From Schmidtea polychroa (taxonomy: Eukaryota), in contig CM097887.1 of NCBI GenBank assembly GCA_044892525.1, positions 41,292,001-41,356,000 of the forward strand: 64,000 bases of DNA, read 5' to 3'. The first letter of the stretch is position 1; the number at the start of each line of letters is the position of its first letter. The notes beneath the pieces were generated by a model. That model made no database searches. It worked only from the letters and a program-made list of their open reading frames with translations, and was not told the origin of the DNA. The position numbers and the translations under genes were made by a program. Positions 14,539 to 41,099 of the stretch are shown here, piece after piece.

Positions 14539-14556
14539 TGGGGGCTCAGCCGGGAT
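14539..14556 (+). promoter_or_regulatory. Primer binding site, tRNA-Pro type
   Basis: TGGGGGCTCAGCCGGGAT matches the canonical tRNA-Pro PBS TGGGGGCTCGTCCGGGAT at 16/18 positions. It starts 7 nt after the LTR end. Confidence 0.85.
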
Positions 14557-17740: not shown

Positions 17741-18646
17741 ATGACGAATGTCGTAAAAACCGACGAGTATAAAGAGAAGTTCAGAGGAGAACCTTTCAAC
17801 GGAAACGCAAACAAGCTAGCATCGTTCATAACTAATTTTGAAGTTTATATCACTGTGTGTGGATGGACACCCGAAGCAATTAGTAAAAGGATGCCGTTGT
17901 TTTTGTGCGATAGTGCATTAGAGGTATATTTAGAAGCTAAAGAGAGAGACACGAAATTAGAAAAGTGGGAAGATATTAAAACATTCCTGAAGAAAACCTT
18001 CGGAGCCAGTAAGCCAATCAACCAGGCGTTGGGCGAACTAGCAAATAGGAAACAAAGAGCAAACGAATCGATAACATTATATGCCAGTGAATTGCGGAGA
18101 TTAGCGAAGAAAGCAATGAATGGAAAATTACCCGAAGAAAATCTGATCGGTTATTTCATAGAGGGATTACGCCGAGAAGAAGTAAGAGCCTCAGTAGGTT
18201 GTCAAATGTGCAAAACATTAGAGGAAGCCATAGATTGGGCTACAAGATGCGAGCTCCACCTTCCAGCTCAAATGAATATTATGCAAGAGGAGGGAAGGAT
18301 AGCGACAGCAATAGCGAAAGCGGATAACGGAGATAACAACAATCAAGAACCGAAAATGAATCAATTTATACCAGGAGCGCACCAAATTTTCAAACCACCA
18401 CAAGGACGATCAAACGGGAATAATGGTAATCGTAACAACCCGAATAATGAGAACAATTTCAATAATCGACGAAATATGAACGATAACAAGCAGTGCCGAA
18501 CATGCGGTAAACCAGGACACTGGGACAGAGATTGTTATAGAAATTCAAATTGTAATCGTTGCGGACGGCGTGGACATACCGAAAATGTATGCCAATTGCG
18601 AGGCTGTTTTGACTGTGGTCAGCCAGGTCACATCTCCAGAGATTGC
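17741..18646 (+). other. gag: Gag: capsid-like domain plus three CCHC zinc knuckles
   Basis: KQRANESITLYASELRRL...YFIEGL, then CRTCGKPGHWDRDC, CNRCGRRGHTENVC and CFDCGQPGHISRDC (18494-18646). Confidence 0.93.
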
Positions 18647-24600: not shown

Positions 24601-27600
24601 CCAATCATCTAACAGCGATAGTGACGGCGATGATAACGGGAACGATAAATGTCTTTATCCAAACAGAAACCCAAACGAAAAACCAATGGAAACGGCACCA
24701 TATTGGGAAAAGGAAAAGACAAACACCTGGATCGCCAATGGAAGCTATATACCACCGGATATCGTGGGACCACAAGCAGCTTTGACCATGACACAAAATA
24801 TGTATCCGCAATTACCGAGTCAACCCGGTATGCTTTATATGCCAACACGACGTACCAAAAGTGTAGATCAAGCAGATGACGTAAGAACAATCGCAGCAAT
24901 GAGTCTACCTGGAGGTCCAGCAGTAACAGTTATGATTCAAATCAATGGTAAAGAAACCAATGCGATGATAGACACAGGAGCTAATGTATCAGCGATAGCG
25001 ATTAATCAAATTCCCAGTAAACACTGGAAGGATATCGAATCAACAACAATTCACATCATAGCATGTAGTAAAGAAACAGTGGACGTGGTCGGAAGATGGT
25101 GGACTACATTGAGATACCAGGACAACGAAATTGAAACGTATTTGGCAGTAATACCAAAACTTAGCGTACCATGCATAATCGGAACGGATTTGATGCCAGA
25201 ATTGTTAAAGGAAGTCGTAATTGACTTAACAACCATGTGTTTAAAAGACAAAACCGGTAGAATATGCAAAATGAATTCAGTCATCAGATGTCCAGAAAAA
25301 ATAATAGTACCAGCAAAATCACAGATGATTTGTCAGATAAAAGTGGATACGGGTATGGAAGGAGAAGTTATCTTTGAACCAAGCAAGTCATTTGAAAAGC
25401 GACGAGAATTACCACTCGCAAGAGAAATAATCACAATAAACCAAGAAGGAGTGATACCGCTCAACATCACGAATTTCGAAGAGGAAGACAAAATCATTTA
25501 TGAGAACGAAAAATTGGGAAGATTGACCCCAATGATGGACATAGAATTACCGAAAGTGACCAACGAGATGATCAAAGATGATGAATTATGGACAATAGAT
25601 AGTATGTTGTTGACGAATGACGAAAAGAAAAAATTGCACCGATTGTTGGTAGAATATAAAGATATATTCGCCATCTCAGATTTAGACTTGGGTACATGTG
25701 ATGTTACCTTACATGCAATACCACTCATAGACGAAACCCCAATTGCATTGAGACCATACAAGCTAGCAGAAATGCAGAAAGAAATAGCCGAAACAGAAGT
25801 ACAAAAGATGCTAGACGCAAAAGTAATCGAACCAAGTTGCTCACCCTGGCAATTCCCAGTGGTCATGGTGAAAAAGAAAGATGGCACCCAACGATTCTGT
25901 ATCGATTATCGGAAGTTAAACGCAGTGACCAAGAGAGATACCTACCCATTGCCGGACATCAATGAGATGTTATTGATGTTGCAAGGGGCAGCATATTTTA
26001 CTTCTTTAGATCTAAAAAGTGGATACTGGCAGATTAAAGTCAAAGATGAGGACAAAGAGAAAACAGCTTTCACGTTGGGACGAGATCTATATCAATTCAG
26101 GAAAATGCCATTTGGACTGACTAACGCACCAGCATCATTTCAACGGTGTATGAACTTTGTCACCCATGGAATCAAACAATGTATGGTATATATTGATGAT
26201 TTACTAATCTATTCAGCGACATTTGAACAACATCTAGAAGATATCCGAAACGTATTTATTAGATTAAGACAGTGGAAACTCAAACTCAAACCATCAAAAT
26301 GCGATTGGGCAAAGGAAAAAGTCACGTTTTTAGGACACATAGTGTCAGCTAAAGGAAAGGAGCCAGATCCAAGAAACATTGAGAAAATAAAAACATGTCC
26401 AGCACCGAAAACTGTCACCCAAGTTCAGGAATTTCTAGGATTATGCGGATACTATCGCAAATTTATCAAAAATTATGCAGGAATTGCAAAACCAATCCAG
26501 GAATTAGTAAAGAAGGACATTTCGTTCTTATGGGGGAAGGAACAACAAGAGGCGTTTGAAACGCTGAGAGACAAACTAATCGAAGCACCTATCCTCGTAC
26601 ACCCAGATTTTAAGAAGCCATTTCTATTGGCAACGGATGCAAGCGGGTACGCGGCAGGCGCGATTCTGGGACAATTGGACGATGAGGGAAAAGAGAGAGT
26701 AATCGGGTATTACAGTCGAACATTCAAAAAGCACGAAAAGAACTATTCGGTAACAGAACGAGAAGCATTGGCTATAATACAAGCTATCAAACACTTCCGA
26801 TATTTACTATGGGGACATGAGATATGCATAACCACAGACCATCAACCATTAGTGTGGTTAGGGCAACATAAAGAAGCGTCCAGTAGACTGATGAGATGGG
26901 CCATGCAATTGCAAGAATACTCCCCATTTATAAAATTCAAAGCGGGAAGAGCAAATGCCAACGCCGATTGTATGTCAAGATTTATTTTCCCAGATTTGGT
27001 GGATTCAGAAATGCAACGCATATGCTTAATAGTAGCGGAAGATTTGGATTTCTGTCAATTGCGAAAGGACCAACAAGAGGACGCGGAATTAAAACAAATT
27101 ATCGATTATATAAAAACCGGACAGACAGATGTATATGCGAAAGACCAAAAATTAAAAGAACATATGGATAAACACCGACACCGATATATTATAGAGAAAG
27201 ATTGGTTGCTGATAATGGATGGGGAAAAACGATTAATGTGTATACCGGAAAACCGACGAAAAGAGTTACTAACGCAATATCACGATGGGAGATTGGGAGG
27301 ACATATGTCATCGAAAAAGACGTTAGCAAGAATGAAACAGAAATATTTTTGGCCTACGTTAACGGAAGATGTAACCGAATGGGTAAAAAATTGTCTAACT
27401 TGTGCAACCAGGAAGAATACGGGATCGAAATGGAAAGCACCTTTAACGCCAATGCCAGTACCAATAGAACCAATGACAATGATATCCATGGACGTAGTTG
27501 GTCCACTACCAGAGTCAGATAAAGGAAACGTTTACATTCTGGTGATCACAGACTTTCTTACGAAATTCCCAGAAGCATTCGCGATGCCAGACCAAAAAGC

Positions 27601-30600
27601 TAAAACAATCGCAAAAATTTTGGTAGAAGAGATATGTTGCCGATATGGAACACCAAAACAAATCTTAACCGATCAGGGAACAAATTTTATGAGTGAGATA
27701 ATGAGCGAAGTAACAAATTACTTCAAAATAGCAAAACTAAGAACATCTCCATACCACCCTCAAACCAATGGGATGACGGAAAGATTTAATGGAACACTTA
27801 TACAAATGTTATCAAACTACGTTGACCGTCACCAACGAGATTGGGACGAATATATAAACCTATGTCTTATGGCGTACAGAATGTCGATTCACGCATCAAC
27901 GAAAATGAGCCCATTCAAATTAATGTACGGAAGAGAATGTAATATGCCAATGGACCTGGAATACCAACCACCGATATCGCAGTATATGGAGATCGATGAT
28001 TATGTTACGAAATTCAAGGAAAGAATGCAAGAAATTTGGGAAACTGCGGGATTAAATATCAAGTTCTACCAGGAAAGTTATAAAGATTTACACGATCGAA
28101 AGAAAAACGTGAAGCAACATACGTTCCAAACAGGTGATTGGGTAATGATAGAAACCCCGGAATTAATTCCAGGAACCACAAAAAAGTTACAACGCAACGG
28201 AAAAGGACCATATGAGATCTTATTCGTAGGCGAAACTAATGTAAGAGTGAAATTGGTAAATAACCCCTTTACCAGACCAATATACGTAAACGTGGCACGA
28301 TGCAAATCAATTCCAAAAACAGCCACTAGTCAACCAGAAGGCCGTACATTAACCACACGTTCGCAAACCTACCGAATGAACATGATGCAACAACTCGCAG
28401 AACCGATCACTGGACGATTAGGTATCCAACCATCAGAAGCGGAAAAGATTGTAAAAGAGGTAAAAATTAAAATACCTGGATGGGCGAAAGATCGATTAGA
28501 TTTCGAAATATTAGGAGGATTATTGACGATGATCGAGAACTATGCAAATAGAGAAAGGACACACCCATTATTGCGAGTAGTCAAAAGCCAATGGCCAATA
28601 TTATTTACAATAACAGATCATTACGGAGACACACCATTACACAAACTCATGAAAGTAGGTAACAACGAGCAAATACTAGAAACAATAGAAGCATTTCACG
28701 ACTGCAAGCGATCAACAGAACAAACAAACAACCAAGGTTACACACCATTAATGATAGCCGCAAACAGAGGCAAAACAAAAGACATTATAACCGCATTACT
28801 CGATACCGGATCGAAAATAACTACACAAGACCACGAGCGGAAAAACGCTCTACACCATGCTATCGAAGGGAGAAGTACCGAGGCGTTCACGTCATTGATG
28901 GAACTACTATCATATGAGGACAATCGGGAAGTCGGAAACATGTATGATGGATTGTTAACAGCGATCAAAGAAAAACTGACGACAATTACCGGAATATTAA
29001 TTACATGGAGAAATCCAATTCGAAACGATTATATGATCAACGTAAACGAAGCGTTCACGAGAGGAGAGAACACGCTGATGAGAGAAGCTATGAAAGGACA
29101 TCAGTTATTCGAAATCCCGAATCAATTACTAGAACGAGGGATAAAATTCACAAATCATAAAGACGAACAGTTAGCAAAAAAGCGAATCGACACATTCGAA
29201 AAATCCCTATTCCAATTTACTAACCAAGTACGAAATAAATATTGGGAAACGGTAAGTGTGTTATATATGATGGACACAATGAATAACATCCGCGAGAATT
29301 ACCTGGATATTATCCAAATACTTACAGCAGAGGAACGAATCAATAATCCAAACGGAAAGAAAACGAAAATAAGGTATGAGAAATCCAGGGAATCAAAGTC
29401 AACAACGAACCAAACGGTCACAAACAACGTCATCGAAACCAAATCAATGAGTATAGATCAAGAGGCAATAATACGCAAAGCAAAAGAAGTGTTCTTTGAG
29501 GAAATGCTAGAGCTGCCAGACGAAATAATATTGTCAAAAATAATAAAAGCCGTACACACATACGCAAGAGATCAAACCACGGATTTAGATATCGGGAAAA
29601 TCAAAACCTTCTTGCCTCGAGCATTTACGATGGTAACGAAGGATTCCAGAACACCCCTACAACAAGCAATACTAGCAGCGAAAGAAAATAGAGCAATAAC
29701 GATCGTGAGAATCCTTGGAGAGATGGGCGAGGAAACCAACACGAAAAATGAACAAGGTGAAACCGCCATGATGTATGCAGCTATAACGAAAATACACCCA
29801 AAAACACTCCACATCCTACATCAATCAGGATCGAAACTAGACGAAAAGTCCAATGAAGGAAATTCCACCTTGGACTGGGCAACCATACAGCCAAACTTAG
29901 AAATGATCAGATTTATTTGCAAAAATGCGACAAAAGAAGAAGTCGAAAATATGTGCAAAAACACATCTCAGTTTCAATGGAATGCGGTACGGAAAAATCT
30001 AGAAGCAATGAAATTATTATTAACCTGGAGAGTACCACAAAATAATAAATATGCGATAAATGTAAACGAATTCTACGAAAACGGAGAAAATGCGATGGTA
30101 AAGAATACCCTAACTAAGGGGGGGACACCTAAAATAATTTTAATAGTATTAAATAGAGAAGACCTAAAATTCACGCAAAATCAGAACGAGCAACAACGAA
30201 TTGGGAAACATCGTCGTATGCAATTGAGAGAGTTAGTTAAAGAATGGAATAGAAAGAGACATGCTGCAACGGGTAGAAAAGAGTTTGAATTCGAAGCAAA
30301 ATTAGCAAGAAACAGAGTGCTAACAGCATATCGCAGATTATTGAACGATATAAATGTCGAGGACGACATTTTAAACGACAGCGGGGGAGATAAACACGAT
30401 GACAATAACGGAAAAGGCCGAAAGGAGGATAAAGAGAAAAGAGAACAGGAGGAGGGTAAACCGGAAAACAAGGATTCGGATACGAAAAGAGAGGGAAACA
30501 GCCCGGGAACTAAGACCAAAGAGGAGGAAAAATCGAATAATGGAAAACAGAGGGTATGCCTACCTTTCACTAACAAAGAAATAGAGACAAATATGATATT

Positions 30601-31594
30601 AATGATAATTATGCTTACCATGATAGAGTTAGTAACAGCTCAGGGAGGGACGAGAACGATAAAAGAAACCAAAGAAGCGGAGAATCAAGATAGCAAAGAG
30701 GATGAACTAAAGCAAGAAAAGAAAAAGCAAGCACAAGAGCAGCAGTGGGATTTAAAGGAAGAATGGGACTTAAAGGAAAGGTGCATACTAGGAAGATGCA
30801 TGTCTAGAGCGTATCAGAAACTAGTACTGATAAATGAGGCCACAGAACCAATAACAGAAGTAAGAATACAAGAAGCATACCGAAATCGAGACGGGAAGAG
30901 AATAACGAACGTCAAAGGAAAAGAGGTACACCTAGGAAAAGGTGGTGAAGTAGTAATAACGCAGATCCAACCTAGAAAAGAGCACAAAGTCTGTATTTCA
31001 AGATTAGGACCAGGCGAGAGATGCCATCAATATGTGACGCAGCAGCAGCCGCCGAAAGAATACACGGTTTGTATCTGGAGGAATGAATCAAAAAGAGAAT
31101 GCCGACGATACCCGGGGAAAAGAGGAAAGAAAAGAAAAAACCACGACGAAAAGAACGAAGGAGGAAAGCACAAGAAAACTGGTGAGGAAGCTCAGGACAA
31201 CTATGTTTCGGAGGAAGAGATGGAAAAAATACAAAAGATGGCAAAGGAGGGTATGAACGAGGAAATAGCAAGAATACGGGAAATGATGAAAGGAAATGGC
31301 AAAAGAGGAAACGAGAAAAGTACAGAAGCGATATCAACATTAACAAACAAGGAAAAACCAGAGAGTATAAGCGTGAAGCAGATGATGTGGATCAGTGGGA
31401 TAATAATAACAGGGGCATTCCTAATCATAACGGGGGGAACAATAAAAATAATTAAGGATAAACGACATCGCGGAGAACTAGAGATGACTCGAATCAGAAA
31501 TTTCCAACATCGAGTGAAACGACCAAGTGATATCAAACAAGAACAGTGGGTGGAGGCCTGGAACGCTCAGCGCCCTCCAAACTCACGTATATAG
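17741..31594 (+). CDS. gag-env-pol: 4,617-aa Gag-Ubl-Bcl2-Env(G)-PR-RT-RH-IN-ANK-TM polyprotein
   Basis: Single frame, with no stop codon or frameshift. Motifs: DTG (24971), YIDD (26189), TDAS (26633), HHCC zinc finger and D-D35E (27491, 27671, 27779), GPY motif near 28205. Confidence 0.97.
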   Translation: MTNVVKTDEYKEKFRGEPFNGNANKLASFITNFEVYITVCGWTPEAISKRMPLFLCDSALEVYLEAKERDTKLEKWEDIKTFLKKTFGASKPINQALGELANRKQRANESITLYASELRRLAKKAMNGKLPEENLIGYFIEGLRREEVRASVGCQMCKTLEEAIDWATRCELHLPAQMNIMQEEGRIATAIAKADNGDNNNQEPKMNQFIPGAHQIFKPPQGRSNGNNGNRNNPNNENNFNNRRNMNDNKQCRTCGKPGHWDRDCYRNSNCNRCGRRGHTENVCQLRGCFDCGQPGHISRDCRERGQQQRPPQRNNNYIANPQRQSNPNEGKQMNVMQEISQMKQMMQQMMRPRQESAPQQTQNIRMMRSTENLNNYEVHQHVQEWQRLQAEEERIKQERNQQRQEQPLRINMMKLVKDMKSQYCYNYGKSPRVVPMTEPEKVKEITTEMKTENSTTILKGNQRIQKIFWKKIKDKIEKEHNKAKTETEDENNKSKEQTSQLNHQMLQESEPEETTIFERKKLKKVPRMRNLQINMMKRTKDVASSDEEEDYVSSLGGEILQLNEISEPPKGEIKEEEGESEITSESEDEDIEIKLRKGKEEAIKQVAEILPVVVRNQEFIDVIPFRRFVQKVMKLERNEKDLIPNEEKSIIKNYMEKMKQADTTRYVIKIGTSRGLERMWIKNTVTDELFDWIREHLGSSRKKEYLYQYQGEQIKPDMHLVDALIWPGETQILKLHKEKQPANLYDWAKDAKAEYDFNIKLKLEQIKQCTLRRNLDKLIKQIQEQVEDNWDLLITRRAPAMYELMSRLRDTEMLRMSDWRTINLIHKYGRLKETQPQRLEITIWLPNEEKRRIKMSNQSTVDDLVSKINQEITEKVRSESSDGMVDDVVMMYDKIILRAEDDTSLSEMGMWDNHQIIRIVPMDEFRTRDVTYQKEIRDRMKTLYQKSTEIIEIHQQWLKEKELQGKITKLNTRSCRRTPWERVWNAESKEWEIRKGTFVETDIGETESESEEEEEEPPEYEEEAREQTSDDESETDVTSESENEARHIHAMRKKEREYADMDGEEAAEAREREEKERYKQLGDILAMGAKNQRRQVVALANIILKTSENIHNLRGMAKAIEEYRQYNEWYPEQLEQIIRKWRNQEWAQDTQERYHIRIKYPDKSIEELEVHPTTKIRELKKKLAYETPFHLQLFGKSLDDNADVGITPMRLEETNVLTMAETLGKPLKRKSKIIKPTQGSLSTPSPNKAPSKSNETEEVEEIILEDSDDEPGERSPLLVRWPTGAEMWTNNQPSTSYQQPTKLNIKEIIDNTTETETDEQFQKQREPTKVTPESQTDKIIDEWNEWLRNNDSSLPRTDNERNPNYENTREAGTMMEKRAKGRPKKQGEKSEFKTKEQLKQEQGQVRLEKLDKIVWDLKEAQPTIERGEKWIRELLKDMLIITNPQLRRLWQRKVASTEARQLWHTISGIIPKLIKEKTKTTKTDWDETKRVIEQLTTNANDDEHHLVVITYLMYNLMGLAARKIPNKQFANHVEMTVSIIENTIEPHIIRAGGWKRLIQAPRKNEQERSMQVRLKKLLNELEWELPMKDPASRKASINSLMMTMMIWMLCTSGATGFTIYDCDNMIMRDKYSLRDIEECRQASPNKLDIVRTKVTYHVYQESDFIRTQARECVVSKKVLAYYCGQYSYSTLILPGLDKEIVSIQREDCKELFRTGALKMHNGVTIHGQTGMIKTESVYVAGKVKSSDGSCNGGTYTIRGEVISGVVVIESYTVELKEYEAQFDANNYQMKTNPACKATENVCRTGVSTIIYEANTQKCRLQLLKSALFNEVKGEIYENENDEDGNDRVRMRNGKPMPPSPREKRLSTQKTPTALITDDPDLGMRFIKEKETTKCDSIVYKTNYAGIYMSRQIIDRAVGKIATEDVKLYLYANNKMDFLFHRGQTTLQKVYYDLIQNDCSLNKEILKTKLAIAITHPDNTMPSLPLPDGHFGRMVGEVMYTYQCTKTYARMPEKSILPEKRCANELEIRYKGQNRFVQPVTRIMNPVGFYPNLFNCSNAYGPLYERPDGKWMMLPGKTISEEPKKFGLIELATELDFKPIDVSNGGMYSPEDLETARLNVLFPARRESILSNMVTITGGTNYQSGPNYELLLSPDHFQQATSNMMKAMWGRFLVFGQMMAGILGIILIIQIVRVILTQMLACFDIYKREKKVNWKMIVGFLPFLAKTMVLHGHSKDIHRIKRLIKILTKIKGTDEEVGRRFRKVMYDEATRRQLKKNKPKFLDRFRSQSSNSDSDGDDNGNDKCLYPNRNPNEKPMETAPYWEKEKTNTWIANGSYIPPDIVGPQAALTMTQNMYPQLPSQPGMLYMPTRRTKSVDQADDVRTIAAMSLPGGPAVTVMIQINGKETNAMIDTGANVSAIAINQIPSKHWKDIESTTIHIIACSKETVDVVGRWWTTLRYQDNEIETYLAVIPKLSVPCIIGTDLMPELLKEVVIDLTTMCLKDKTGRICKMNSVIRCPEKIIVPAKSQMICQIKVDTGMEGEVIFEPSKSFEKRRELPLAREIITINQEGVIPLNITNFEEEDKIIYENEKLGRLTPMMDIELPKVTNEMIKDDELWTIDSMLLTNDEKKKLHRLLVEYKDIFAISDLDLGTCDVTLHAIPLIDETPIALRPYKLAEMQKEIAETEVQKMLDAKVIEPSCSPWQFPVVMVKKKDGTQRFCIDYRKLNAVTKRDTYPLPDINEMLLMLQGAAYFTSLDLKSGYWQIKVKDEDKEKTAFTLGRDLYQFRKMPFGLTNAPASFQRCMNFVTHGIKQCMVYIDDLLIYSATFEQHLEDIRNVFIRLRQWKLKLKPSKCDWAKEKVTFLGHIVSAKGKEPDPRNIEKIKTCPAPKTVTQVQEFLGLCGYYRKFIKNYAGIAKPIQELVKKDISFLWGKEQQEAFETLRDKLIEAPILVHPDFKKPFLLATDASGYAAGAILGQLDDEGKERVIGYYSRTFKKHEKNYSVTEREALAIIQAIKHFRYLLWGHEICITTDHQPLVWLGQHKEASSRLMRWAMQLQEYSPFIKFKAGRANANADCMSRFIFPDLVDSEMQRICLIVAEDLDFCQLRKDQQEDAELKQIIDYIKTGQTDVYAKDQKLKEHMDKHRHRYIIEKDWLLIMDGEKRLMCIPENRRKELLTQYHDGRLGGHMSSKKTLARMKQKYFWPTLTEDVTEWVKNCLTCATRKNTGSKWKAPLTPMPVPIEPMTMISMDVVGPLPESDKGNVYILVITDFLTKFPEAFAMPDQKAKTIAKILVEEICCRYGTPKQILTDQGTNFMSEIMSEVTNYFKIAKLRTSPYHPQTNGMTERFNGTLIQMLSNYVDRHQRDWDEYINLCLMAYRMSIHASTKMSPFKLMYGRECNMPMDLEYQPPISQYMEIDDYVTKFKERMQEIWETAGLNIKFYQESYKDLHDRKKNVKQHTFQTGDWVMIETPELIPGTTKKLQRNGKGPYEILFVGETNVRVKLVNNPFTRPIYVNVARCKSIPKTATSQPEGRTLTTRSQTYRMNMMQQLAEPITGRLGIQPSEAEKIVKEVKIKIPGWAKDRLDFEILGGLLTMIENYANRERTHPLLRVVKSQWPILFTITDHYGDTPLHKLMKVGNNEQILETIEAFHDCKRSTEQTNNQGYTPLMIAANRGKTKDIITALLDTGSKITTQDHERKNALHHAIEGRSTEAFTSLMELLSYEDNREVGNMYDGLLTAIKEKLTTITGILITWRNPIRNDYMINVNEAFTRGENTLMREAMKGHQLFEIPNQLLERGIKFTNHKDEQLAKKRIDTFEKSLFQFTNQVRNKYWETVSVLYMMDTMNNIRENYLDIIQILTAEERINNPNGKKTKIRYEKSRESKSTTNQTVTNNVIETKSMSIDQEAIIRKAKEVFFEEMLELPDEIILSKIIKAVHTYARDQTTDLDIGKIKTFLPRAFTMVTKDSRTPLQQAILAAKENRAITIVRILGEMGEETNTKNEQGETAMMYAAITKIHPKTLHILHQSGSKLDEKSNEGNSTLDWATIQPNLEMIRFICKNATKEEVENMCKNTSQFQWNAVRKNLEAMKLLLTWRVPQNNKYAINVNEFYENGENAMVKNTLTKGGTPKIILIVLNREDLKFTQNQNEQQRIGKHRRMQLRELVKEWNRKRHAATGRKEFEFEAKLARNRVLTAYRRLLNDINVEDDILNDSGGDKHDDNNGKGRKEDKEKREQEEGKPENKDSDTKREGNSPGTKTKEEEKSNNGKQRVCLPFTNKEIETNMILMIIMLTMIELVTAQGGTRTIKETKEAENQDSKEDELKQEKKKQAQEQQWDLKEEWDLKERCILGRCMSRAYQKLVLINEATEPITEVRIQEAYRNRDGKRITNVKGKEVHLGKGGEVVITQIQPRKEHKVCISRLGPGERCHQYVTQQQPPKEYTVCIWRNESKRECRRYPGKRGKKRKNHDEKNEGGKHKKTGEEAQDNYVSEEEMEKIQKMAKEGMNEEIARIREMMKGNGKRGNEKSTEAISTLTNKEKPESISVKQMMWISGIIITGAFLIITGGTIKIIKDKRHRGELEMTRIRNFQHRVKRPSDIKQEQWVEAWNAQRPPNSRI
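19733..21400 (+). other. Up to three ubiquitin-like domains (19733-19951, 20255-20506, 21203-21400)
   Basis: The third, YHIRIKYPDKSIEELEVHPTTKIRELKKKL...LQLFGKSLDD, follows the ubiquitin pattern. The first two are weaker beta-grasp-like matches. Confidence 0.6.
21960..22420 (+). other. Bcl-2-like helical domain
   Basis: BH2-like IEPHIIRAGGWKRLIQ; degenerate BH1 position (DEHHLVVITYLMYNL); helical amphipathic sequence throughout. Confidence 0.65.
22520..24430 (+). other. env: Chuvirus-like viral fusion glycoprotein with internal signal peptide and TM anchor
   Basis: Signal SINSLMMTMMIWMLCTSGATG|FTIYDC. Conserved motifs YDC..SL..C, C....YYCGQYSYS, DGSCNG, GEVMYTYQC, FVQPVTRI and GGMYS. REKR furin-type site at 23324-23335; TM at 24242-24347. 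Confidence 0.85.
24905..28320 (+). other. pol: Pol: retropepsin, linker, RT, RNase H, integrase
   Basis: AMIDTGANVS; PWQFPVVMVKKKDG..RFCIDYRKLN; YIDD; LATDAS..EREALA..TDH..ADCMSR; H..GH..C..C; MDVVGPLP, TDQG, GMTERFN; GKGPY. All catalytic residues are present. Confidence 0.97.
28613..30180 (+). other. Two ankyrin-repeat modules duplicated with a 340-aa period
   Basis: GDTPLH/GYTPLMIAA/KNALHHA and RTPLQQA/GETAMMYAA/NSTLDWA. Both TPL (28631 vs 29651) and TWR (29006 vs 30026) anchors are offset by exactly 1,020 nt. Confidence 0.85.
30593..31453 (+). other. C-terminal signal peptide + small Cys-containing ectodomain + TM (type I membrane module)
   Basis: MILMIIMLTMIELVTA|Q; FN3-like strands ITQIQPRKEHKVCI and PPKEYTVCIW; TM MMWISGIIITGAFLIITGGTI followed by KIIKDKR. 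Confidence 0.6.
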
Positions 31595-31754
31595 AAAGGA
31601 ATATGACTGTATATAATTGTAAAAAGTAAGTATATCTTATGTATATAACAGTACTATATCTTTATATAAGCGCGGTATCAATATTATACAATAACGGGAA
31701 TCATAAAATAAAATTAAATTTACATAAGAGCTGAAAAGTGTATATAAATTAGGA

Positions 31755-32114
31755 ATGGATCAAGGAAATAACGAAATGAACCACAATACAGTAACTGAAG
31801 AATTATGGAAGCAACAATGTGCCGTATTAGCACAATTAGTGTCCAATTTGCAAGAACAAGGACTGACGATGCACAGAAACCTGATCGAGAGTATGAACAG
31901 AGGATTTAGTTATTTGAAGATAATTGAAGACCAGAGGTTAAAAATCGAACAAATGCAAAGAGAGATAGAGAGGATAACCCAATATAGCCGTCGACAGGAA
32001 ATTGAAATAGACAGAATGATGGAGGAAGCAGAACAGACGGAAATAGAAGACTGGTCGGAATGGCTAATGAATAGAGAGGAGAGCGGACACGAAGCCGACT
32101 CTTCCGAACCCTAA
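31755..32114 (+). CDS. 119-aa coiled-coil accessory protein
   Basis: Same A-rich codon style as the polyprotein; heptad-like E/Q/R-rich sequence. Confidence 0.7.
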   Translation: MDQGNNEMNHNTVTEELWKQQCAVLAQLVSNLQEQGLTMHRNLIESMNRGFSYLKIIEDQRLKIEQMQREIERITQYSRRQEIEIDRMMEEAEQTEIEDWSEWLMNREESGHEADSSEP

Positions 32115-32199
32115 ACCAAACCTAGCTCAAAATGTAAATAATTGTAAATAAAATATCGAACCTGTATCGATAAGAACTATTTGTACATATAATTATAGA

Positions 32200-33588
32200 A
32201 TGGATAAACGACAAAGAGAAGAGTTCAGAGAGATTGTCGAGCAAGTCCGAAAATCTACAACGATCAGAATACACAAACATGTTATGTGCGGAATATGTGA
32301 AAAGTTGTTAAAGGAACCTCACCAAACGCAATGTGGATGCAGAGTATGTAAAGAATGTATCAGTGAAGCAATAAAGAATAGACCACAGAAGTGCCCGGTG
32401 TGTAAAGAGACACTAATATCGAGTTTAGAAGACACTAACGAGGATAAAGCCGCAGTGAAAGACATGTTAAACACCAACCTGGGATGCAAAAATGCCCCAT
32501 GCGAATGGAAAGGAGTAATATGGAAGGTAGTACAACATATGGGAGAATGTATGTACAGAATTGGCCAGTGTGAAAGGTGCCATAAAACCATTCGAGCAAG
32601 CGAAGAAAAAGAGCATCAAAGGCAGTGTGAAGAGAGATTGGAAAGATGTGAACACTGTGGAGAAATAGATACGTGGATAAATCTCACCCTCAAACATCAC
32701 AATGTCCAAGAGGAGAGAGTATGTGCGGAGTTCAGTGGGGAATGCCCAAACGGATGTAACCAAGGGGAAATAATGAAGGTGGCACAGCATCTAAGGGAAT
32801 GCGAAAAGAAAAGAATGACATGTGTACTAGGTAGATGGGGTTGTCAGAAATTACTACACCGAGGTGAGTTACCACATCATTTAGTAGAAAATGCTTCAAC
32901 TCACGCAGAAATGTGGTCGACTGCGTTACAAGAAAGCGAAGAGAAAGTAAAACAAATGGAGATAGAGATAACATCGTTGAAAGTGTTAGTCAAAGAACTA
33001 CTAGAAGAAAGGGAAGCGTTCGAAGAAGCCCGAGCAAACATAAAGATGCAAATAAACCGAACAGAAATTAGTAATAATCAGGCCAAGGAGCTACATCAGA
33101 AAATACGGGAAATAAATCTAAATGAGATAACCCCAACAGCACCCTACATATGGAAAATAACGGGAGTAAAAGAAAGAATACGAAAAGCAAAAACCGGAGA
33201 AGAGACAAGAATAACAAGTCCTACATTCCATTCTTGGAAAAATGGGTACAAAATGAAAATGAAGGTATATCCCAACGGGGACGGAACCGGATTGGATACG
33301 CACTTTTCGATTTTCTTTCTGTTATGTAAAGGAGAATACGACGAAATATTAGAATGGCCGTTCCAGGCAAAAATCGATATTACTCTGATGAACAACCAAA
33401 GTATACATGAGCAAAGCTTCAAAACAACGGGGAATCAAATAGCTTACCAGAGGCCCCTCAACGAAGAAGGATCAGCAACAGGAGCACCCACGTTCATCTC
33501 ACAACAAAGAGTGGAAGATATGGCGAGAAATGATACCATATATATCAAGATGACCGTGAGGAAAGAGGAGAAGGGTAGAACGGAATAA
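32200..33588 (+). CDS. TRAF: Full-length intronless TRAF homolog (RING, TRAF zinc fingers, coiled coil, MATH)
   Basis: CGIC...CGCRVC..C...CPVC; repeated C..C...H...C fingers; MATH motifs YIWKI, GYKMKMKVYPNGDGTGLDTHFSIFF, GEYDEILEWPF. Confidence 0.93.
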   Translation: MDKRQREEFREIVEQVRKSTTIRIHKHVMCGICEKLLKEPHQTQCGCRVCKECISEAIKNRPQKCPVCKETLISSLEDTNEDKAAVKDMLNTNLGCKNAPCEWKGVIWKVVQHMGECMYRIGQCERCHKTIRASEEKEHQRQCEERLERCEHCGEIDTWINLTLKHHNVQEERVCAEFSGECPNGCNQGEIMKVAQHLRECEKKRMTCVLGRWGCQKLLHRGELPHHLVENASTHAEMWSTALQESEEKVKQMEIEITSLKVLVKELLEEREAFEEARANIKMQINRTEISNNQAKELHQKIREINLNEITPTAPYIWKITGVKERIRKAKTGEETRITSPTFHSWKNGYKMKMKVYPNGDGTGLDTHFSIFFLLCKGEYDEILEWPFQAKIDITLMNNQSIHEQSFKTTGNQIAYQRPLNEEGSATGAPTFISQQRVEDMARNDTIYIKMTVRKEEKGRTE

Positions 33589-33726
33589 CCAATCGAATAA
33601 TGTTGTATATAATAATCTGTATATATCGGTGTATATAACCAATAAAATATTATATAATAATAGTATGAAAACCCTAAATACGAAAACCCAAAAATGATGC
33701 GAAAATTTCCCAAGAAACAGTAAATA

Positions 33727-34836
33727 ATGAATAAATTCCTTTTCATAATAAAAAGATTAATCGATGTCTATGATTTAGAGATGACACAAGAGAAAATAAC
33801 CGAAACTGCGATAGCCCCAACCAATGTCAACAAGACACAAATTCCCCGAGAACATAATAAAAAATGGAACAAAGTAATGTTCCAACTAACTAATCTCACC
33901 CGAAATCACATCGAAGAAACTAGAGAAGATGAGAATAGTCAATACCAATGGTTAATACACAACTTAAGAGCGGAAGCAGAAGCATGCAAAAGAGCATCAA
34001 AATGGGCGTCACTAGAAAATACCCGCCAAGAAGCACACAGCCACTACTTAAAGCAGCTAGTGCAGGAAGCGAGAAAAAGACTTACCGATGAGAACACCAA
34101 GCGCGAAGCGGAAAAACAAATAGAAGACAGGAAAATGATGCACTTAGTGGCAGAAGCGAGAAAATGGAAAAGACAAAACAGAGAAATGAAAAAAGAGATG
34201 AAAGAATTGCCCATGAGACTCGGATATGAAAGCGAACAAGGTAAATGGGAGGAGAATTTAATAATAAAGGAAGAATTGAAAAGGTTGAGAAAAGTCGCCG
34301 CCCGAAGCCAAACCTGGCAAACAAAGGCTATGGAGTTTGAGCGACATTTGGCAATGAAGTGCGACATAAGAGAGCACGAGAATGCCGCAATGGAAGAGAT
34401 GATAACCCAACAAGCGGGACGGGTTGTGGAATTAGTAAATCAGGTAGAAGAGATGAAAAGAGACCTTAATGGATTACAAGGATCGCTGGAACAAAGAAAC
34501 ATGGTCCTAGCGGGAAAAAACAGAAAATTAGAAAACGAAAGGAAAATGTACACCGAAAATATTAAAAACTTAGAAATAGAAATTGAAAAATGGAAGGGCG
34601 ACGAGAAAATCAAGGCCCTAGACAAACAGATAGAGGCGAAAGATGAAGAGACAAGGTATCTCACCTATCTGCTCGACGAGGAATTGAATATCACTCGAGC
34701 TCTAAGAGACGAAGTTAGTGAATTGAGAGCTCAAATTCCCCAATATTACCTACCATACGACCCTATTGCGATACAGTTACATTCCGCGGTCGATAGTGAT
34801 GAAGGTTATGTAGGCCAGGAGGAAACCTTCGTATGA
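33727..34836 (+). CDS. 369-aa long coiled-coil protein (possible start 33781)
   Basis: Open frame, E/K/R/L-rich heptads, element-like codon usage. Confidence 0.75.
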   Translation: MNKFLFIIKRLIDVYDLEMTQEKITETAIAPTNVNKTQIPREHNKKWNKVMFQLTNLTRNHIEETREDENSQYQWLIHNLRAEAEACKRASKWASLENTRQEAHSHYLKQLVQEARKRLTDENTKREAEKQIEDRKMMHLVAEARKWKRQNREMKKEMKELPMRLGYESEQGKWEENLIIKEELKRLRKVAARSQTWQTKAMEFERHLAMKCDIREHENAAMEEMITQQAGRVVELVNQVEEMKRDLNGLQGSLEQRNMVLAGKNRKLENERKMYTENIKNLEIEIEKWKGDEKIKALDKQIEAKDEETRYLTYLLDEELNITRALRDEVSELRAQIPQYYLPYDPIAIQLHSAVDSDEGYVGQEETFV

Positions 34837-34950
34837 GGGTGGATGAAAAGATGAAAAACTAAAAACCGGGACGTATATCCCAAACAAAAAAATTAAAGTA
34901 TTGTAAAAGTATTCAAGGGACTATAACCCAAACTATTAAATTTTATATCA

Positions 34951-35703
34951 ATGTATACGTATAAGTCGCACTATAGCGCACCATTAACTGTACATATTAT
35001 AGATATGAAAATCGAGGAAATGATAGAAATTATGAGCGACGTAGAAGAGGGAGAGATTGAGGCAGAAACAACAGAAACACAAACGCTAAAGGCCGAGTTA
35101 CGGGAAGAGAAATACGAAAACGGGAGATTAATAAACAAATACCTGGAGGACCGGAAAATGATAAAGGTGTTAAAGAAAGAGTGCGAAGCGTTGGGGGAAA
35201 TAAAAAGAGAAACGGAAGAGGAAAATGAATGGCTACACGAACAAAGGAAGCGAGGGAAAAACTGGGAAAAGATAGCGGAAGAGCTATGGAAAGAGAGGGC
35301 AAGCTTCAAAGCAAAGGAGGTAATCCAAGACTACTGGAAAACTGAGGCGAAGGAGCGCCAAACAGCTATAAATAAATTAAAACGACAACTAGAAGAAAAC
35401 CAACGGGAAAGTAAAGAAATGAGGAAGTGGGTTCGCAAATATAGAGAAATAGAAAGAAAACATCAACAACAAAATTACCTGCAAGAAAACGAACAAGATC
35501 TCCTACAAATCGAGCTAAAAAGAAACCTTGAAAAGAAAAGGGAAGAAATTAGACGCTTGGAAAAAGAAATTAGACATCTAAAGAGAGAAGCCCGTGAAAA
35601 AGACCGACAATTGGAAATGCTGCCCGAGTTAAGACACAGGGTAATTAAAGCAGAGTCCACCTTGATGAGAATCGGTGAAAATAATCCAAATCAGAACCAT
35701 TAA
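34951..35703 (+). CDS. 250-aa coiled-coil protein (likely start 35005)
   Basis: Open frame with E/K/R-rich heptads. The first 18 codons resemble spacer sequence. Confidence 0.75.
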   Translation: MYTYKSHYSAPLTVHIIDMKIEEMIEIMSDVEEGEIEAETTETQTLKAELREEKYENGRLINKYLEDRKMIKVLKKECEALGEIKRETEEENEWLHEQRKRGKNWEKIAEELWKERASFKAKEVIQDYWKTEAKERQTAINKLKRQLEENQRESKEMRKWVRKYREIERKHQQQNYLQENEQDLLQIELKRNLEKKREEIRRLEKEIRHLKREAREKDRQLEMLPELRHRVIKAESTLMRIGENNPNQNH

Positions 35704-35743
35704 ATTAAGGGTCATTAAAACCAATTGTAAATAAACATAATGA

Positions 35744-36412
35744 ATGTATAATAGTATCATGCGAGGCGAGATGATGATAACAATGATGGTATTGATGATT
35801 CTGATGGAGAACAAACAATTAAACGCCCAACCGAAAATCGTACGAGATTACCGCAATCAAAATCAAGAACCTAAACAAGAATCCGGCAAATGCACATACC
35901 CTATGACCGTAAAAACCCATATCATCCAAACCATTCAATCAACCCGATCCCACATCAACAACATCCAAACAATGTGTAAAAAGAACCCCATTTGTAAAAT
36001 GATAAACAAACAAATCTTCGAACAAAGCCAACAGATCGACCAGTTGGAACAACAAATGCAACAAGAGGATTTTGAAAATCTTGTAGAAAAGCCAAAAACA
36101 CCTCCCGAGATCAATGACACCCATTATCTCATATATGTGGTGATCGCAGAGACCCTCCTCCTATGTCTACCAATATTCATGAAAATTTACGAAATTCGAA
36201 ATAGATGTAGAGTCTCGACATCAATAAGAGTAACCTCGAACCAAAATCCTCAAGAAGTGCCCCTGACAAATCTTAACCCAACCCCATTCCGACCTCGAAC
36301 CCCGAGTAATCAACCAATCCAGCCGAAATCTAATAGTCAGACCTATCTCAACATCAATACCCAAACCAACCAACAGCCGCCAGCAGAAGCATCAATGGTT
36401 AACAGTTCATAA
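35744..36412 (+). CDS. 222-aa predicted type I membrane protein (signal peptide, Cys/coiled-coil ectodomain, TM, Pro/Asn-rich tail)
   Basis: MMITMMVLMILM...LNA|Q; TM YLIYVVIAETLLLCLPIFM followed by KIYEIRNR. Confidence 0.7.
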   Translation: MYNSIMRGEMMITMMVLMILMENKQLNAQPKIVRDYRNQNQEPKQESGKCTYPMTVKTHIIQTIQSTRSHINNIQTMCKKNPICKMINKQIFEQSQQIDQLEQQMQQEDFENLVEKPKTPPEINDTHYLIYVVIAETLLLCLPIFMKIYEIRNRCRVSTSIRVTSNQNPQEVPLTNLNPTPFRPRTPSNQPIQPKSNSQTYLNINTQTNQQPPAEASMVNSS

Positions 36413-36638: not shown

Positions 36639-39600
36639 TGTTGGGCTGAGTCGAAAATTTAATCGTTGAAAAATAGGAAAGTAGGGAAGTAGAACATTAA
36701 GAAAAATAATAATAAAATAAATAAAATCAGAAATAAAATAGAATAAGATATAAGGAAAATAATAATTAAGACATAAGAATTAAAACAAAAAATAAAATTA
36801 AGAAAAGATTAAAATAGAACAAGTTGACAAATAAATAAAGAGGAATTCAAGAAATAATAAGGAAATTAAGGAAATAAATAGAAAAACATATTAAAAATAA
36901 AGAAAATAAGGAAAAAACAACCTAAAAACAAGAAAATTATATTAAATTAATAGAAATAAGCGGTACTCAACTCTGATTGGTCCGCACAAATAAGAATTTG
37001 ATATATATACAACTACCAAAAACATTAAATTTACTGTTAACCCCGAGCATTTCATAGGTAAGAAAAATGTTTACTGTTTTTACTGTTAACCCCGAGCATT
37101 TCATAGGATCGACACTACTAGCCAAGCAACCGTCATTCAGAAAACTCCACAACTATTCAAAACCAGTTCAGAGACCGAAATACCATTCATCACAATAATC
37201 GACATCCAACGGACCACCATTAGAACTATTTGGAACGAACAACATTGAATTTTGACTCAGCCTAACAATAGTAAGGGGTATTTCATTTGTTTATAGATTT
37301 ATTTAAGTATTTGCAAAGCTAATAATAATGTTAAATATTAACGATTAAACATTTTAGTTAACTCTCTTCATTTGATTCTCCATTTTAATAACTTTAACGT
37401 ATTGATGGAATTTGTATTATTTAAGTATTTCCGAATCAATAAAATATTTTAATCCAGATGTCCGTATTTTATTTGAATTAAAGATTTTATGAATTTTCAT
37501 TTAACGAGTAACGTGGAGTTGAGATACTCCATGTCATGGTATGAGGTGCCTTCGGGAGCTCAGCCGGTGGACATGGAGTATTTCAATCGCGCAGCTAGAT
37601 TGGGCCGAAATGTGAAGGCTTCTTCACGGGTCCTATCGCTGAAGATGCGACTAAATTATCACAATGGGGTATGGATAAAAAATAACCGGTAGACAATGAT
37701 TTCACAAAGATAGTCATACGAATGAAGGGATTTTCAAGGATTTGCACAGTGATTGAGGGCGTCGCATTCTTCTTTCGTCAAGTCGTTTTCGTAAATCTTA
37801 CCCCTATTGAAAAATGAGATCCAGACAACGATTTAGTGAACTTCGTCAAAAATAACGACATCTCATAGTACGCTTCATCTGGAAACATGGTTTTATCAAA
37901 TTAATTGCGACAACGTCTATTTGCCGGACTCAGTAGAACTAAATTCGTATGAAATTCCATTATCATAGACCCAATGTCATCTAACCTGTCCAGATTGTAT
38001 GTCAAGTTACGTAAGTATTCTAAAAACTTTGACTAACTCGAAACTATAAAATGCGAGATTCTACGAAAACCCTCTCTAATATTATAATCAGAAAGTTTTT
38101 ATAGACTTAGTTATTTCAAAAATTATAAACAGGTAAAATATCACCAAATTTAATTAATAACATTTATTTCTACAATAAGAGCCAGGTCATCACTGTATAT
38201 ATCCAAATTATTGAACCTGAGAGAAAAGGACAGGTTTCATCGAGACGGCATTACATCTGAATAGGAAAATCCGAGTAGAATGACGAGAGTAGTAATTTGC
38301 TCCAGTATTTGGTAGAATTATTCCCTCGACGATCACAGAAAAGATCCAATAAATTTCCAAACGATGGTGATCATTCACACAAGTTGATAAGGGTAAAATT
38401 CCGCGATGAGAACTGGCGGTAGCATAAATCATAACTCAAATAGATCACTGTGCAGAGAAAATCATACGACAGCAGGATCGATAAAATCACCGTGAAAATG
38501 GCATACACCAAGTGAGTGAGATAAGATAGTAGCCATACGCGAATCCATGTGGTGAGAGCACAAAATATCAGACTAGCATACATAATAGTCGCGACACGTG
38601 ACATTCACAATAGGTCGATAATGTAATCAACTAGTCGACAGTAGTATCCGTAAATTTGGACATGTGTTATGACCGATGAGATATCCCATGAGGGTGTTAA
38701 AGTAATGGCTGATGTAAACTCATCACATATTTTCAGACCAATGGTAGACAACATAGATAATCACATTCACTACCGAATTAAAAGTGCACTTCCAATAACA
38801 AATTTCGAATCAAAAAATATGTTGAGAATAGCGATAGTAATTTGTTTGTAATAAATTAAAATAGATAACATATAGCAAGGTTTGGTCGCATACTATAATG
38901 TCCCTCTACTAAAGCATTATTATATTGTTTCACCAATATTATATTTACCCCCTATTAATTATTACGCCCCTCATGTATACGGTTAGATCAATAGAGAGTC
39001 AAAGTTAATAACATGCGTCAAACCGAGGGCATTTGGTTAAATAAACTGTTTTAACAACTAAGATCCGTAGTAAAACCGGATGGTAGAATAAGTTTTCCTT
39101 CTGTTCGACGGTCAAGTATCCACGAATGGACGCGGGTCGTATCTAATTTATTCTAAAATCGTATGTTCTCCATTTCATTAGTATTATTTATAGCAAGCAT
39201 GCTACCAGCCACTAAATCGGCATTACGGCCGTGCTTCTCGTGCGCGGATAAAAATACGGTGATAAAGGACCTACAGACTCAGATTGGACGTTACAAGAGG
39301 AAGATAGACGAGCTGGAAGGGACATGGTTTAGTCCCGCTCGGATGAAAGAGATCCAAAAGAAGCTCGATCGTAGCGAGCATTGCCGGGACGCGCTAATAT
39401 CTGAGAGCCGTGCCCAAAGAAGTCTAATCAGAGAACAATCCGAGGCACTGCATAAGGTTTACGTGCAGGCGGCTACAACCCGAAAAATCGTGCAGATTCC
39501 CATCCGAGAGGCCGATGACATCTTTCCGCCTCATCACAACCTTTCCTCGAATCCATCTCCACCGTTCAAGAGACCGTGCCGAGACTGCGTCGAAACCGAA

Positions 39601-40485
39601 TGGTCCCCCAAGCGTCCAGATGTTGTCATCACGGGTACCAGTAAGCCCCCCACTGCTAGTCCATCTGTATCAGTCACCCTTCTGCAAGTGGCATCTTCAA
39701 GCAAACCCAAGCGCAAACAACTCTCTCGTGCAGAGCGCAAGAAGAGACAGCGCGAGCGCGCTACTGCAAAGCCAAACATCCCATCAATAGAGGACTCAAC
39801 TAACGGTGGCAACTCTCACGTGTCCATCGACCTAACAACGGGACCCTCAGCGCGAATCATATCAGCCGCTGGCGTAAGGTGGGAAGAGAACGCTTCCGAG
39901 TTTTTCAACCTCGACGAATTATTCGCCGACACTGAATGGGAGAAACAATAAAACCCCAGTGGCGGTCAGGATGAGGAACAAGGATCCGATCTATGTTGAT
40001 TATGATGTTTTCTCTTCTTTCGACAAACATTAGTAAAGTGTACAGCTGAATCCTTGTGTCATAACGTTGAAATTAATAAATCTTGTTGTCTTACACGTTT
40101 TCGTTCATGAATAATTAGACTTTAATTAAGTGGGTTGAGTAGAGAACCCGCAAGATCTAGTGAGAATTTCCCAATTTGCATTCAGCGAATCCTGATAGGT
40201 GGTTGTGTAAGGAAATGGACGTAAGCCCTTCTATCGGCAGTCGTGAATGGGAAGTCGAGGCCTCAGCAAGGAGTAGTTTTAAGGCAGAAGCTCACCTGCT
40301 TGCTGGCGTCTCGCCTGCATAGTGCAGTACCAACGTGAAGTGATTCACGGGCACTATGTTGGAAGAAAGTTATGTGGGGTTTCACTCCAGGTTGACAAAT
40401 CGGTGGCACCTTTTATTCGAGATGGACAATCAACCCTTAGACCCGCCAACATGGTAGAATGGTCAGCCGAGGTGTGACCCCAACA
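36639..40485 (+). repeat. 3' LTR (3,847 bp)
   Basis: Copy of 10685-14531, followed by the AAAT TSD. Confidence 0.97.
39163..39951 (+). CDS. LTR-encoded ORF, 3' copy
   Basis: Translation identical to 13209-13997. Confidence 0.7.
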   Translation: MFSISLVLFIASMLPATKSALRPCFSCADKNTVIKDLQTQIGRYKRKIDELEGTWFSPARMKEIQKKLDRSEHCRDALISESRAQRSLIREQSEALHKVYVQAATTRKIVQIPIREADDIFPPHHNLSSNPSPPFKRPCRDCVETEWSPKRPDVVITGTSKPPTASPSVSVTLLQVASSSKPKRKQLSRAERKKRQRERATAKPNIPSIEDSTNGGNSHVSIDLTTGPSARIISAAGVRWEENASEFFNLDELFADTEWEKQ

Positions 40486-41099
40486 AAATTGAAAAAAGAG
40501 AACAAAAAACAACTTGGAAAAAGGAATTGCCCTATTTTGAGGGCTTGGCTGAGATAACGAGTGAACCACCAGGTAAGCTGGGAAAATGAAAAGGAAAAAA
40601 ATCAAATAAAACTGCATATCTCGACAATTGCTTAAGATAACAGGAATGAGTCAATATTACTTGAAAAAAAGAAAATGAAAACAACATTGCGCTATAATTA
40701 TTAAATGGTGTTGTAATAAGCACTTGATAGGAATTGGTTTTGGTTTTGAATATTTGGTGTCGTGGTAATTATATAATCATTTGAAATAATCAATAAAAGT
40801 TTATATTGTCTAGAATTTGTTGTTGTTAGCAGATAAAACATGATTGGAATCAGATCAATAATTTTTTACTATATATTTCAACGACAACCCTAACATATTT
40901 AGAAAGCTGAAATATTTTGAAAAACGGAAATTTTTAATTTTTTTTACCTCGAATTGACAACTTATGAATGGCAGCAGAATTACGTCCGATTTCAATTGAT
41001 TTTGTCCAATTAAGTGACTATCACGACACCAATATTTGATATATATTACACGTTCAATCACACGCGTTATGACATGTTGTAAGAAAAATAATTAACGTC

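Follow-up and report, generated by a model that had tools for sequence, protein, structure and literature searches.

The region analyzed (here, the window) comprises 64,000 nucleotides of contig CM097887.1 of Schmidtea polychroa (GCA_044892525.1; 41,292,001 to 41,356,000), and all positions given below are those of the window. It contains a retroelement of 29,801 bp, the features of which are read on the forward strand. The element is flanked by a four-base target-site duplication (AAAT; 10681 to 10684 on the left and 40486 to 40489 on the right) and bounded by two 3,847-bp LTRs (TG...CA; 10685 to 14531 and 36639 to 40485). The LTRs are 100% identical, and the insertion is therefore recent. 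Each LTR encloses a 264-codon open frame (13203 to 13997 and 39157 to 39951), and neither frame had a Pfam match. Inside the 5' LTR boundary lies a candidate primer-binding site (14539 to 14556), which may resemble a tRNA-Pro site; no tRNA gene was found in the 64-kb window. An upstream accessory ORF (14874 to 15359) encodes an IAP-type RING (PF13920; E = 4e-11) with no BIR, and a BIR query against the window gave no match under an E value of 0.08. The leader between this ORF and gag contains a tandem repeat with a unit of ~74 nt (15879 to 16544). Outside the element, a 426-codon open frame (6375 to 7655) had no Pfam match.

The central part of the element is a single frame of 4,732 codons (17396 to 31594) that was delimited by ORF and Pfam analyses. 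It encodes gag, CCHC knuckles, a mononegavirus-like fusion protein, protease, reverse transcriptase (RT), RNase H, integrase, and ankyrin repeats, with no MATH domain. Behind it follow orfA (31755 to 32114; 119 aa; no Pfam match), the TRAF ORF (32200 to 33588), orfB (33727 to 34836; 369 aa; no Pfam match above the cut-off), orfC (35005 to 35703; first ATG at 34951), and orfD (35759 to 36412; first ATG at 35744), the last of which has hydrophobic stretches. The starts of orfC and orfD were placed on the basis of the other lineages described below. The gag-env-pol-ankyrin polyprotein marks the element as a planarian Burro/GYPSM1 type, an assignment made from the published description of the architecture. 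With regard to that description, the window element has the length (~30 kb), the multikilobase LTRs, the high copy number, an ORF1 of ~4,800 aa, the env-like fusion protein between gag and PR-RT-RH-IN, and the ankyrin repeats. The features described for Burro1, namely, a MATH domain in ORF1 and a BIR gene, are absent from the window element and present in a second lineage of the same genome (lineage B, below).

The TRAF ORF runs from the ATG at 32200 to the TAA at 33586 to 33588 and encodes 462 aa in a single frame with no introns. An N-terminal RING finger with eight Cys ligands (aa 30 to 68; 32287 to 32403) was identified by alignment and by Pfam (zf-C3HC4; E = 6e-5, above the cut-off). It is followed by TRAF-type zinc fingers (aa 96 to 235; 32485 to 32904). 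The Pfam zf-TRAF model matched the lineage B and host TRAFs but gave no match to the window copy at an E value of 0.01; the Cys/His ligands of the window fingers nevertheless fall in conserved columns of a 24-TRAF alignment, and the RING together with the first fingers matched the TRAF6, TRAF5, and TRAF2 structures (phmmer; E = 8e-14 to 3e-10). In an AlphaFold model built on the 24-TRAF alignment (mean pLDDT, 87; pTM, 0.41), an unbroken helix (aa 232 to 306; 32893 to 33117; pLDDT, 75 to 93) precedes the MATH domain and is predicted to form the coiled coil (TRAF-N). The MATH (TRAF-C) domain (33145 to 33564) was identified by Pfam (aa 316 to 453; E = 2e-27) and by the model, in which the beta-sandwich of aa 316 to 455 resembles those of TRAF3, TRAF1, and TRAF2 (Foldseek; E = 7e-18 to 4e-17). 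A four-module TRAF (RING, zinc fingers, coiled coil, and MATH) inside a retroelement at 32200 to 33588 is thus confirmed. The first-pass annotation had claimed that an entire TRAF is carried by a retroelement, and the claim is borne out by the position of the ORF between the two LTRs, the four modules, the many copies, and the purifying selection.

The element is abundant. In a DNA search with the TRAF ORF, all 40 scored matches (the best 40 of 363 candidates) were 99 to 100% identical to the window copy, and in a protein search with the MATH domain, all 150 scored matches were 82 to 100% identical, giving at least 150 copies. Among these 150, which are the top-scoring matches and hence biased toward intact genes, 131 had frames of 470 codons or more that were uninterrupted by a stop, and 19 were broken (17 with shorter frames and 2 with an internal TGA). 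The genomic context was also preserved: in 20 loci picked by hand across the 82 to 100% identity range, orfA was located 5' and orfB 3' of the TRAF ORF in every case, the end of the polyprotein was present in 19, and integrase was present in 18. As judged from frame length and profile range, with 8 loci checked directly, ~95 of the top 150 MATH profile matches in the genome appear to be element borne. Two near-identical TRAF copies (G000:C2:177699304 and 177725516) are separated by 26,212 bp, i.e., approximately the element length minus one LTR, and possibly belong to tandem elements with a common LTR.

Searches with a Pfam model, host TRAFs, and database TRAFs revealed two further lineages. 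Compared with the window lineage (lineage A), lineage A2 is 69% identical in TRAF, 98 to 99% in RT, and 96% in integrase, and lineage B is 29 to 33% identical in TRAF, 92 to 93% in RT, and ~82% in integrase. The LTR pairs of the A2 and B copies are near-identical (97.9 to 99.9%), and the A2 LTRs enclose a 253-codon frame. In all three lineages, the TRAF gene is placed after pol and orfA. Lineage B has a second MATH domain within ORF1 and a BIR-RING ORF directly 3' of TRAF, and it fits the published description of Burro1. The ORF1 MATH domain of this lineage (L099:1974-9998, L092, and L096) is 36 to 38% identical to the window MATH domain and stands beside a full accessory TRAF; the BIR-RING (IAP-like) ORF (L100:8608-9783) is absent from A and A2. 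The copies at L041 to L060 are mosaics in which the synonymous distance to the window copy varies severalfold between adjacent genes of one copy (e.g., in L042, 2.16 for the ankyrin part and 0.20 for TRAF). This mosaicism points to frequent recombination.

To assess selection on the TRAF ORF, we calculated dN/dS by the Nei-Gojobori method, which ignores transition bias. The values were obtained pairwise against the window copy and, because they all share that copy and the copies are mosaic, are not independent. They ranged from 0.08 to 0.24 in 23 lineage A loci, with bootstrap intervals for L044, L049, and L141 that span 0.07 to 0.16, and from 0.11 to 0.18 in 16 lineage B loci, three of which repeat the values of another row. 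In the seven A2 loci, the synonymous sites were saturated (six ratios could not be computed and one was 0.06) and dN was 0.18. Individual domains gave 0.04 to 0.21 for the RING and 0.06 to 0.15 for MATH. Most other accessory ORFs lie within the range for TRAF, with orfD higher, and integrase is much more constrained (~0.01). Positive selection on the receptor-binding surface was considered and rejected, given that residue variation is even along the protein in 17 divergent copies and that domain dN/dS does not exceed 0.42.

The 19 broken copies among the 150 might be taken to suggest that the gene is a neutral passenger, i.e., a piece of a host gene copied along without function. This explanation has a negligible probability in view of the dN/dS of ~0.1 across lineages with saturated synonymous sites. 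Moreover, among 23 distinct young copies, dN/dS was 0.12 for changes found in at least two copies, compared with 0.30 for singletons. These substitution patterns indicate that the TRAF ORF is under strong purifying selection (dN/dS, ~0.1) and, barring an artifact of some overlapping constraint, exclude neutrality. Thus, the dN/dS check proposed in the first-pass annotation favored its claim, and the gene is neither a lone copy nor in neutral decay.

The RING of the window TRAF reads C45-G46-C47 (32332 to 32340) at the place where solved TRAF structures have CGH, so that Cys replaces His at zinc ligand 4. This substitution had been noticed at first pass and read as a change that might make the protein dominant negative. 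The observation stands, but the substitution is not specific to the element, since all 26 host TRAF RINGs examined (loci L061 to L090, L104, and L105) have CGC. The same residues occur in TRAF-2, TRAF-4, and TRAF-5 of Dendrocoelum lacteum and in a crinoid TRAF3-like protein. On this census, the CGC RING is a trait of the planarian family and the host norm. Cys can hold zinc at this position, and CNOT4, whose RING is all Cys, has ligase activity. We also observed clusters of host TRAF-like genes on contig C2 (~1 to 5 Mb and 105 to 124 Mb; L067 to L090) in which the RING and MATH domains are in separate exons and every RING is CGC.

Removal of the CGC argument bears on a rival explanation in which the element TRAF is a decoy or dominant negative that joins host oligomers, or occupies receptor tails without signaling, and so dampens immune or stress responses. 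Such a role would accord with ~30% identity to host TRAFs combined with retention of all the oligomerization modules. It would also accord with the MATH domain, in which the serine-rich stretch of the TRAF2 and TRAF3 receptor groove is replaced by QIAY. Host TRAFs, however, likewise depart from TRAF2 and TRAF3 at that stretch in the alignment. The RING, moreover, keeps its eight Cys residues and is as constrained as MATH, whereas relaxation or loss would be expected of a pure decoy. With its original ground being the host norm, we regard the decoy as unlikely, although it deserves more weight than the other rivals considered here.

The absence of introns had been interpreted as a sign of mRNA capture. 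This argument fails, because seven host genes (L061 to L064, L066, and two in L104) also carry all four modules within one exon and open frame, and in four of these the exon includes an in-frame ATG 5' of the RING as well. The closest host paralogs have no intron across the four modules. Since host TRAFs are also single exon, the lack of introns in the element TRAF does not distinguish RNA-level from DNA-level capture. The host TRAF at L061 is single copy, with its next match at 52%.

We then placed the element TRAFs among their relatives. A word-indexed homolog search returned one match from 3,805 candidates, and a full HMMER search was used for relatives. The nearest named relatives of the window TRAF are from the triclad Dendrocoelum lacteum. 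In the tree relied on here (22 rows, constructed carefully, with 40 rows left out), the element TRAFs and the database proteins P0001 and P0004 form one clade (support, 95/89) that sits within a larger clade made up of host TRAFs together with other rows of the CGC type (95/97). No host subclade contains the element clade, and support is poor at the base of the planarian TRAF clade (59/46 and 60/0). A quick tree of 62 rows agreed on the element clade (SH-aLRT, 96); three unplaced database proteins (P0001, P0004, and P0020) cluster with the element TRAFs. The residue composition of the element rows is skewed and could draw them together in trees. Under six-class recoding, the split between element and host TRAFs was kept (96.9), but the long row P0099 fell inside, and a MATH-only tree had no clean element clade.

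The host subclades include Dendrocoelum orthologs, and the donor lineage therefore either goes back at least as far or no longer exists. The TRAF gene resembles the polyprotein in third-position composition (A/T, 0.44/0.18 and 0.45/0.18, respectively), with a third-position T of 0.30 to 0.44 in host TRAFs. This resemblance, the constant position of the gene, and a divergence in step with that of integrase are all consistent with a single old capture and subsequent vertical descent. Judging from these comparisons, the TRAF gene was likely taken once, long ago, from the host CGC-type TRAF family, the host-to-element direction being part of that reading. Template switching during reverse transcription is a known route of gene capture by LTR elements and is the likely route here.

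The opposite direction, in which the single-exon CGC TRAFs of the host were seeded from element TRAFs by domestication or retroposition, would account for the seven host genes with four modules in one exon, and it draws some room from the position of the element clade outside every host subclade in a tree with a weakly supported basal order. We consider this direction improbable for three reasons. Dendrocoelum orthologs are present in the host subclades, yet the families in which Burro is reported to have expanded are Geoplanidae and Dugesiidae (PMC13465017, a secondary account, in the excerpt available). No Burro frames were found in the 10-kb loci around the single-exon host TRAF genes. Finally, the spacer motifs described below are missing from the host genes, with a single match across the 14 flanks (90 nt each) of the seven genes.

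The spacers between the accessory ORFs suggest how these genes may be expressed. The spacer upstream of TRAF (32115 to 32199) contains three TGTAHATA motifs (32133, 32143, and 32182) and an acceptor-like TTATAG ending at 32198, and the spacer downstream of TRAF (33589 to 33726) contains three TGTATATA motifs (33604, 33618, and 33630). In total, the window spacers (31595 to 35758; 549 nt) contain 10 sense and no antisense TGTAHATA motifs; the mean of shuffled sequences was 0.51, and none of 1,000 shuffles reached 10. The 13,854 nt of the polyprotein examined contain none. Similar sense-strand enrichment was observed in A2 (L144; 10 compared with 0.75 in shuffled sequences) and B (L100; 4 compared with 0.50), and all 36 distinct pairs of element TRAF flanks examined had two or three motifs in the 90 nt upstream. 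Of 230 TGTA sites, 223 had A, T, or C at the fifth position, in agreement with the Pumilio consensus (UGUAHAUA). The spacer motifs appear Pumilio-like, in that they match this consensus on the sense strand and lie in untranslated regions. They may alternatively be CFIm-type UGUA, TATA-like, or forkhead sites. The forkhead-like GTAAAYA was enriched to a lesser degree (its count was reached by 4 to 5 of 1,000 shuffles) and overlaps the Pumilio-like motif. Internal polyadenylation was weakened as a candidate by the lack of AATAAA enrichment in the spacers (719, 731, and 816 of 1,000 shuffles reached the count). Among the literature listings searched, no description of Pumilio motifs in retrotransposons was found.

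The TRAF gene requires its own mRNA, because it is located 14 kb behind the start of gag. We examined 19 accessory ORFs from the window, L144, L159, L095, L097, L100, and L101, the lineages not being independent of each other. A YAG occurs 0 to 6 nt 5' of the first ATG in 14 of the 19 and of the first or second ATG in 17, compared with a background of 9%; the two misses are AAG. The sequence TT(A/G)(T/C)AG precedes the TRAF ATG in all three lineages. This arrangement suggests that subgenomic mRNAs arise by splicing, with the 5' end supplied either by an LTR leader, for which candidate donor-like sites lie at 12057 and 12558, or by a spliced leader joined in trans, a mechanism in use in planarians. 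A donor-like GTAAGT is also present at 31626, just past the polyprotein stop, and in A2. Contigs from four sequencing runs, searched at 85% likeness, cover the TRAF ORF in X1, X6, and X3 and have no GT..AG joint; three of the runs are guessed to be RNA, and such contigs cannot show transcript starts. One X1 contig, for which the same two limits hold, begins 13 nt before the TRAF ATG, 5' of the proposed acceptor.

On the basis of these results, we propose that the TRAF ORF is an intact and selected accessory gene of a Burro element, that it was likely obtained through one old capture from the host, that it is likely translated from a subgenomic mRNA produced by splicing, and that its product is likely a normal prosurvival adaptor or ubiquitin ligase (probability, roughly 60%). 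The ORF would be expressed by splicing to the YAG just before its ATG, and the Pumilio-like spacer motifs may limit translation of the accessory mRNAs. By analogy with cellular TRAFs, the protein would trimerize through its coiled coil and MATH domain, its MATH domain, in which the Y-x-x-GDG, F, and GxP positions of the groove align with TRAF2 and TRAF3, would bind the tails of receptors or adaptors, and its RING would recruit ubiquitination. The net effect may be to shift host stress and death signaling toward survival of the cell that produces the element. Action as an ordinary TRAF is the simplest reading because all four modules are constrained.

The prosurvival direction is favored because knockdown of host traf genes in planarians harms cell survival and homeostasis (PMC8807557, excerpt), because the described Burro cargo is antiapoptotic and includes BIR and BCL2-like parts (PMC6431247 and an excerpt of PMC13465017), and because a BIR-RING gene adjoins the lineage B TRAF. 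Burro1 B-IAP is also reported to protect stem cells from apoptosis (PMC13465017, a secondary account, as excerpted). Against a prosurvival role, a BIR gene is missing from the window lineage, and no element or planarian host row contains the Pfam TRAF_BIRC3 binding domain (the cIAP-binding segment of TRAF), so that a module like TRAF2-cIAP is not indicated. In addition, the sole characterized viral TRAF in the excerpt available, megalocytivirus ORF111L, is proapoptotic; it binds TRADD and induces caspase-8 apoptosis (PMC3352826). An element TRAF of that kind would drive caspase signaling or membrane traffic and so aid the spread of env-bearing particles, and the element does have a fusion-protein gene. 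We give this possibility a low probability, below that of the decoy, because hundreds of resident copies of a death factor would be costly and the described Burro cargo (BIR and BCL2-like, in the part of the literature cited above) acts in the opposite direction.

A more speculative extension of the prosurvival reading, to which we assign a low probability, is that the Burro accessory cluster resembles that of a complex retrovirus or an operon. Each gene would be spliced, perhaps by leader trans-splicing, to its own acceptor and gated by Pumilio; element TRAF would make up a large share of planarian TRAF transcripts and, like B-IAP, would be part of host survival control. If this extension is true, part of the published planarian TRAF expansion is element cargo, as are some of the SMEDWI-3-cleaved mRNAs for TRAF, ankyrin, and E3 proteins. 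Among the targets of SMEDWI-3, TRAF zinc-finger, ankyrin, and E3 ligase domains are overrepresented (PMC6824462, excerpt), and these are the domain types of the Burro cargo. The possibility that element piRNAs also target host traf mRNAs was considered and dropped: the longest common exact words were 9 to 14 nt and the best matches 21 to 24 of 30 nt, as counted without a shuffled control.

These findings have practical consequences. Planarian "traf" genes need to be checked for element origin wherever they are counted, their expression is measured, or they are knocked down. Since B-IAP is reported to be a stem-cell protector (in the excerpt cited above), the element TRAF, a second complete and conserved regulator of death or immunity in Burro, is an obvious candidate for RNAi. 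The spacer motifs offer a testable model for expression of the accessory genes of a 30-kb retroelement, and the CGC residues are removed as a false lead.

Finally, we compared the window element with known systems. It shares with Burro/GYPSM1 a length of ~30 kb, a giant ORF1 (4,700 to 4,900 aa), env in frame between gag and pol, ankyrin repeats, accessory ORFs, and TRAF/MATH and RING cargo (PMC6431247). A MATH_TRAF_C domain in Burro elements has been in print since 2007, located in ORF1 in S. mediterranea or in an upstream accessory ORF in D. tigrina (Dugesia tigrina) (PMC6431247). Megalocytivirus TRAFs are likewise known (PMC3352826, excerpt), and the novelty first attributed to the window gene, that no retroelement was known to encode an entire TRAF, therefore does not hold in that form. 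The review of Burro/GYPSM1 describes only the MATH_TRAF_C domain, whereas the window has a four-module TRAF 3' of pol (PMC6431247). The literature searched, which excluded the likeliest places (Grohme et al. 2018 and Lee et al. 2026), contained no account of a retroelement with a four-module TRAF. Within that scope, what appears to be new here is the full four-module TRAF; the TRAF domain in Burro elements is already on record. The window lineage lacks the ORF1 MATH domain and the BIR gene, whereas lineage B, in the same genome, has both in addition to a full TRAF.

A close parallel is Burro1 B-IAP, which is a host-derived, RING-bearing regulator of cell death, as the element TRAF likely is, and, like it, an accessory gene of the same element group (PMC13465017, excerpt). 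B-IAP differs in being a BIR-RING protein with an experimentally tested function, compared with a function deduced from sequence for TRAF, and it is absent from the window lineage. ISKNV ORF111L and the other megalocytivirus TRAFs also combine a RING, a coiled coil, and a MATH domain in a protein encoded by a mobile element, and ORF111L is ~32 to 33% identical to cellular TRAF domains (PMC3352826, excerpt). ORF111L differs in its length (296 aa), in the zinc-finger array, which is not described in that excerpt, in its origin from a fish DNA virus, and in its proapoptotic action through TRADD and caspase 8. The four-module order and fold of the element TRAF are those of cellular TRAF2, TRAF3, and TRAF5 and of the expanded planarian TRAF-like family (excerpts of PMC6109357, PMC7586133, and PMC8807557). 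With the host paralogs of this genome, the element TRAF has in common the CGC RING and the single-exon module block; unlike them, it has an A-rich codon composition, hundreds of LTR-flanked copies, and conserved spacer motifs, and it is only ~30% identical to them.
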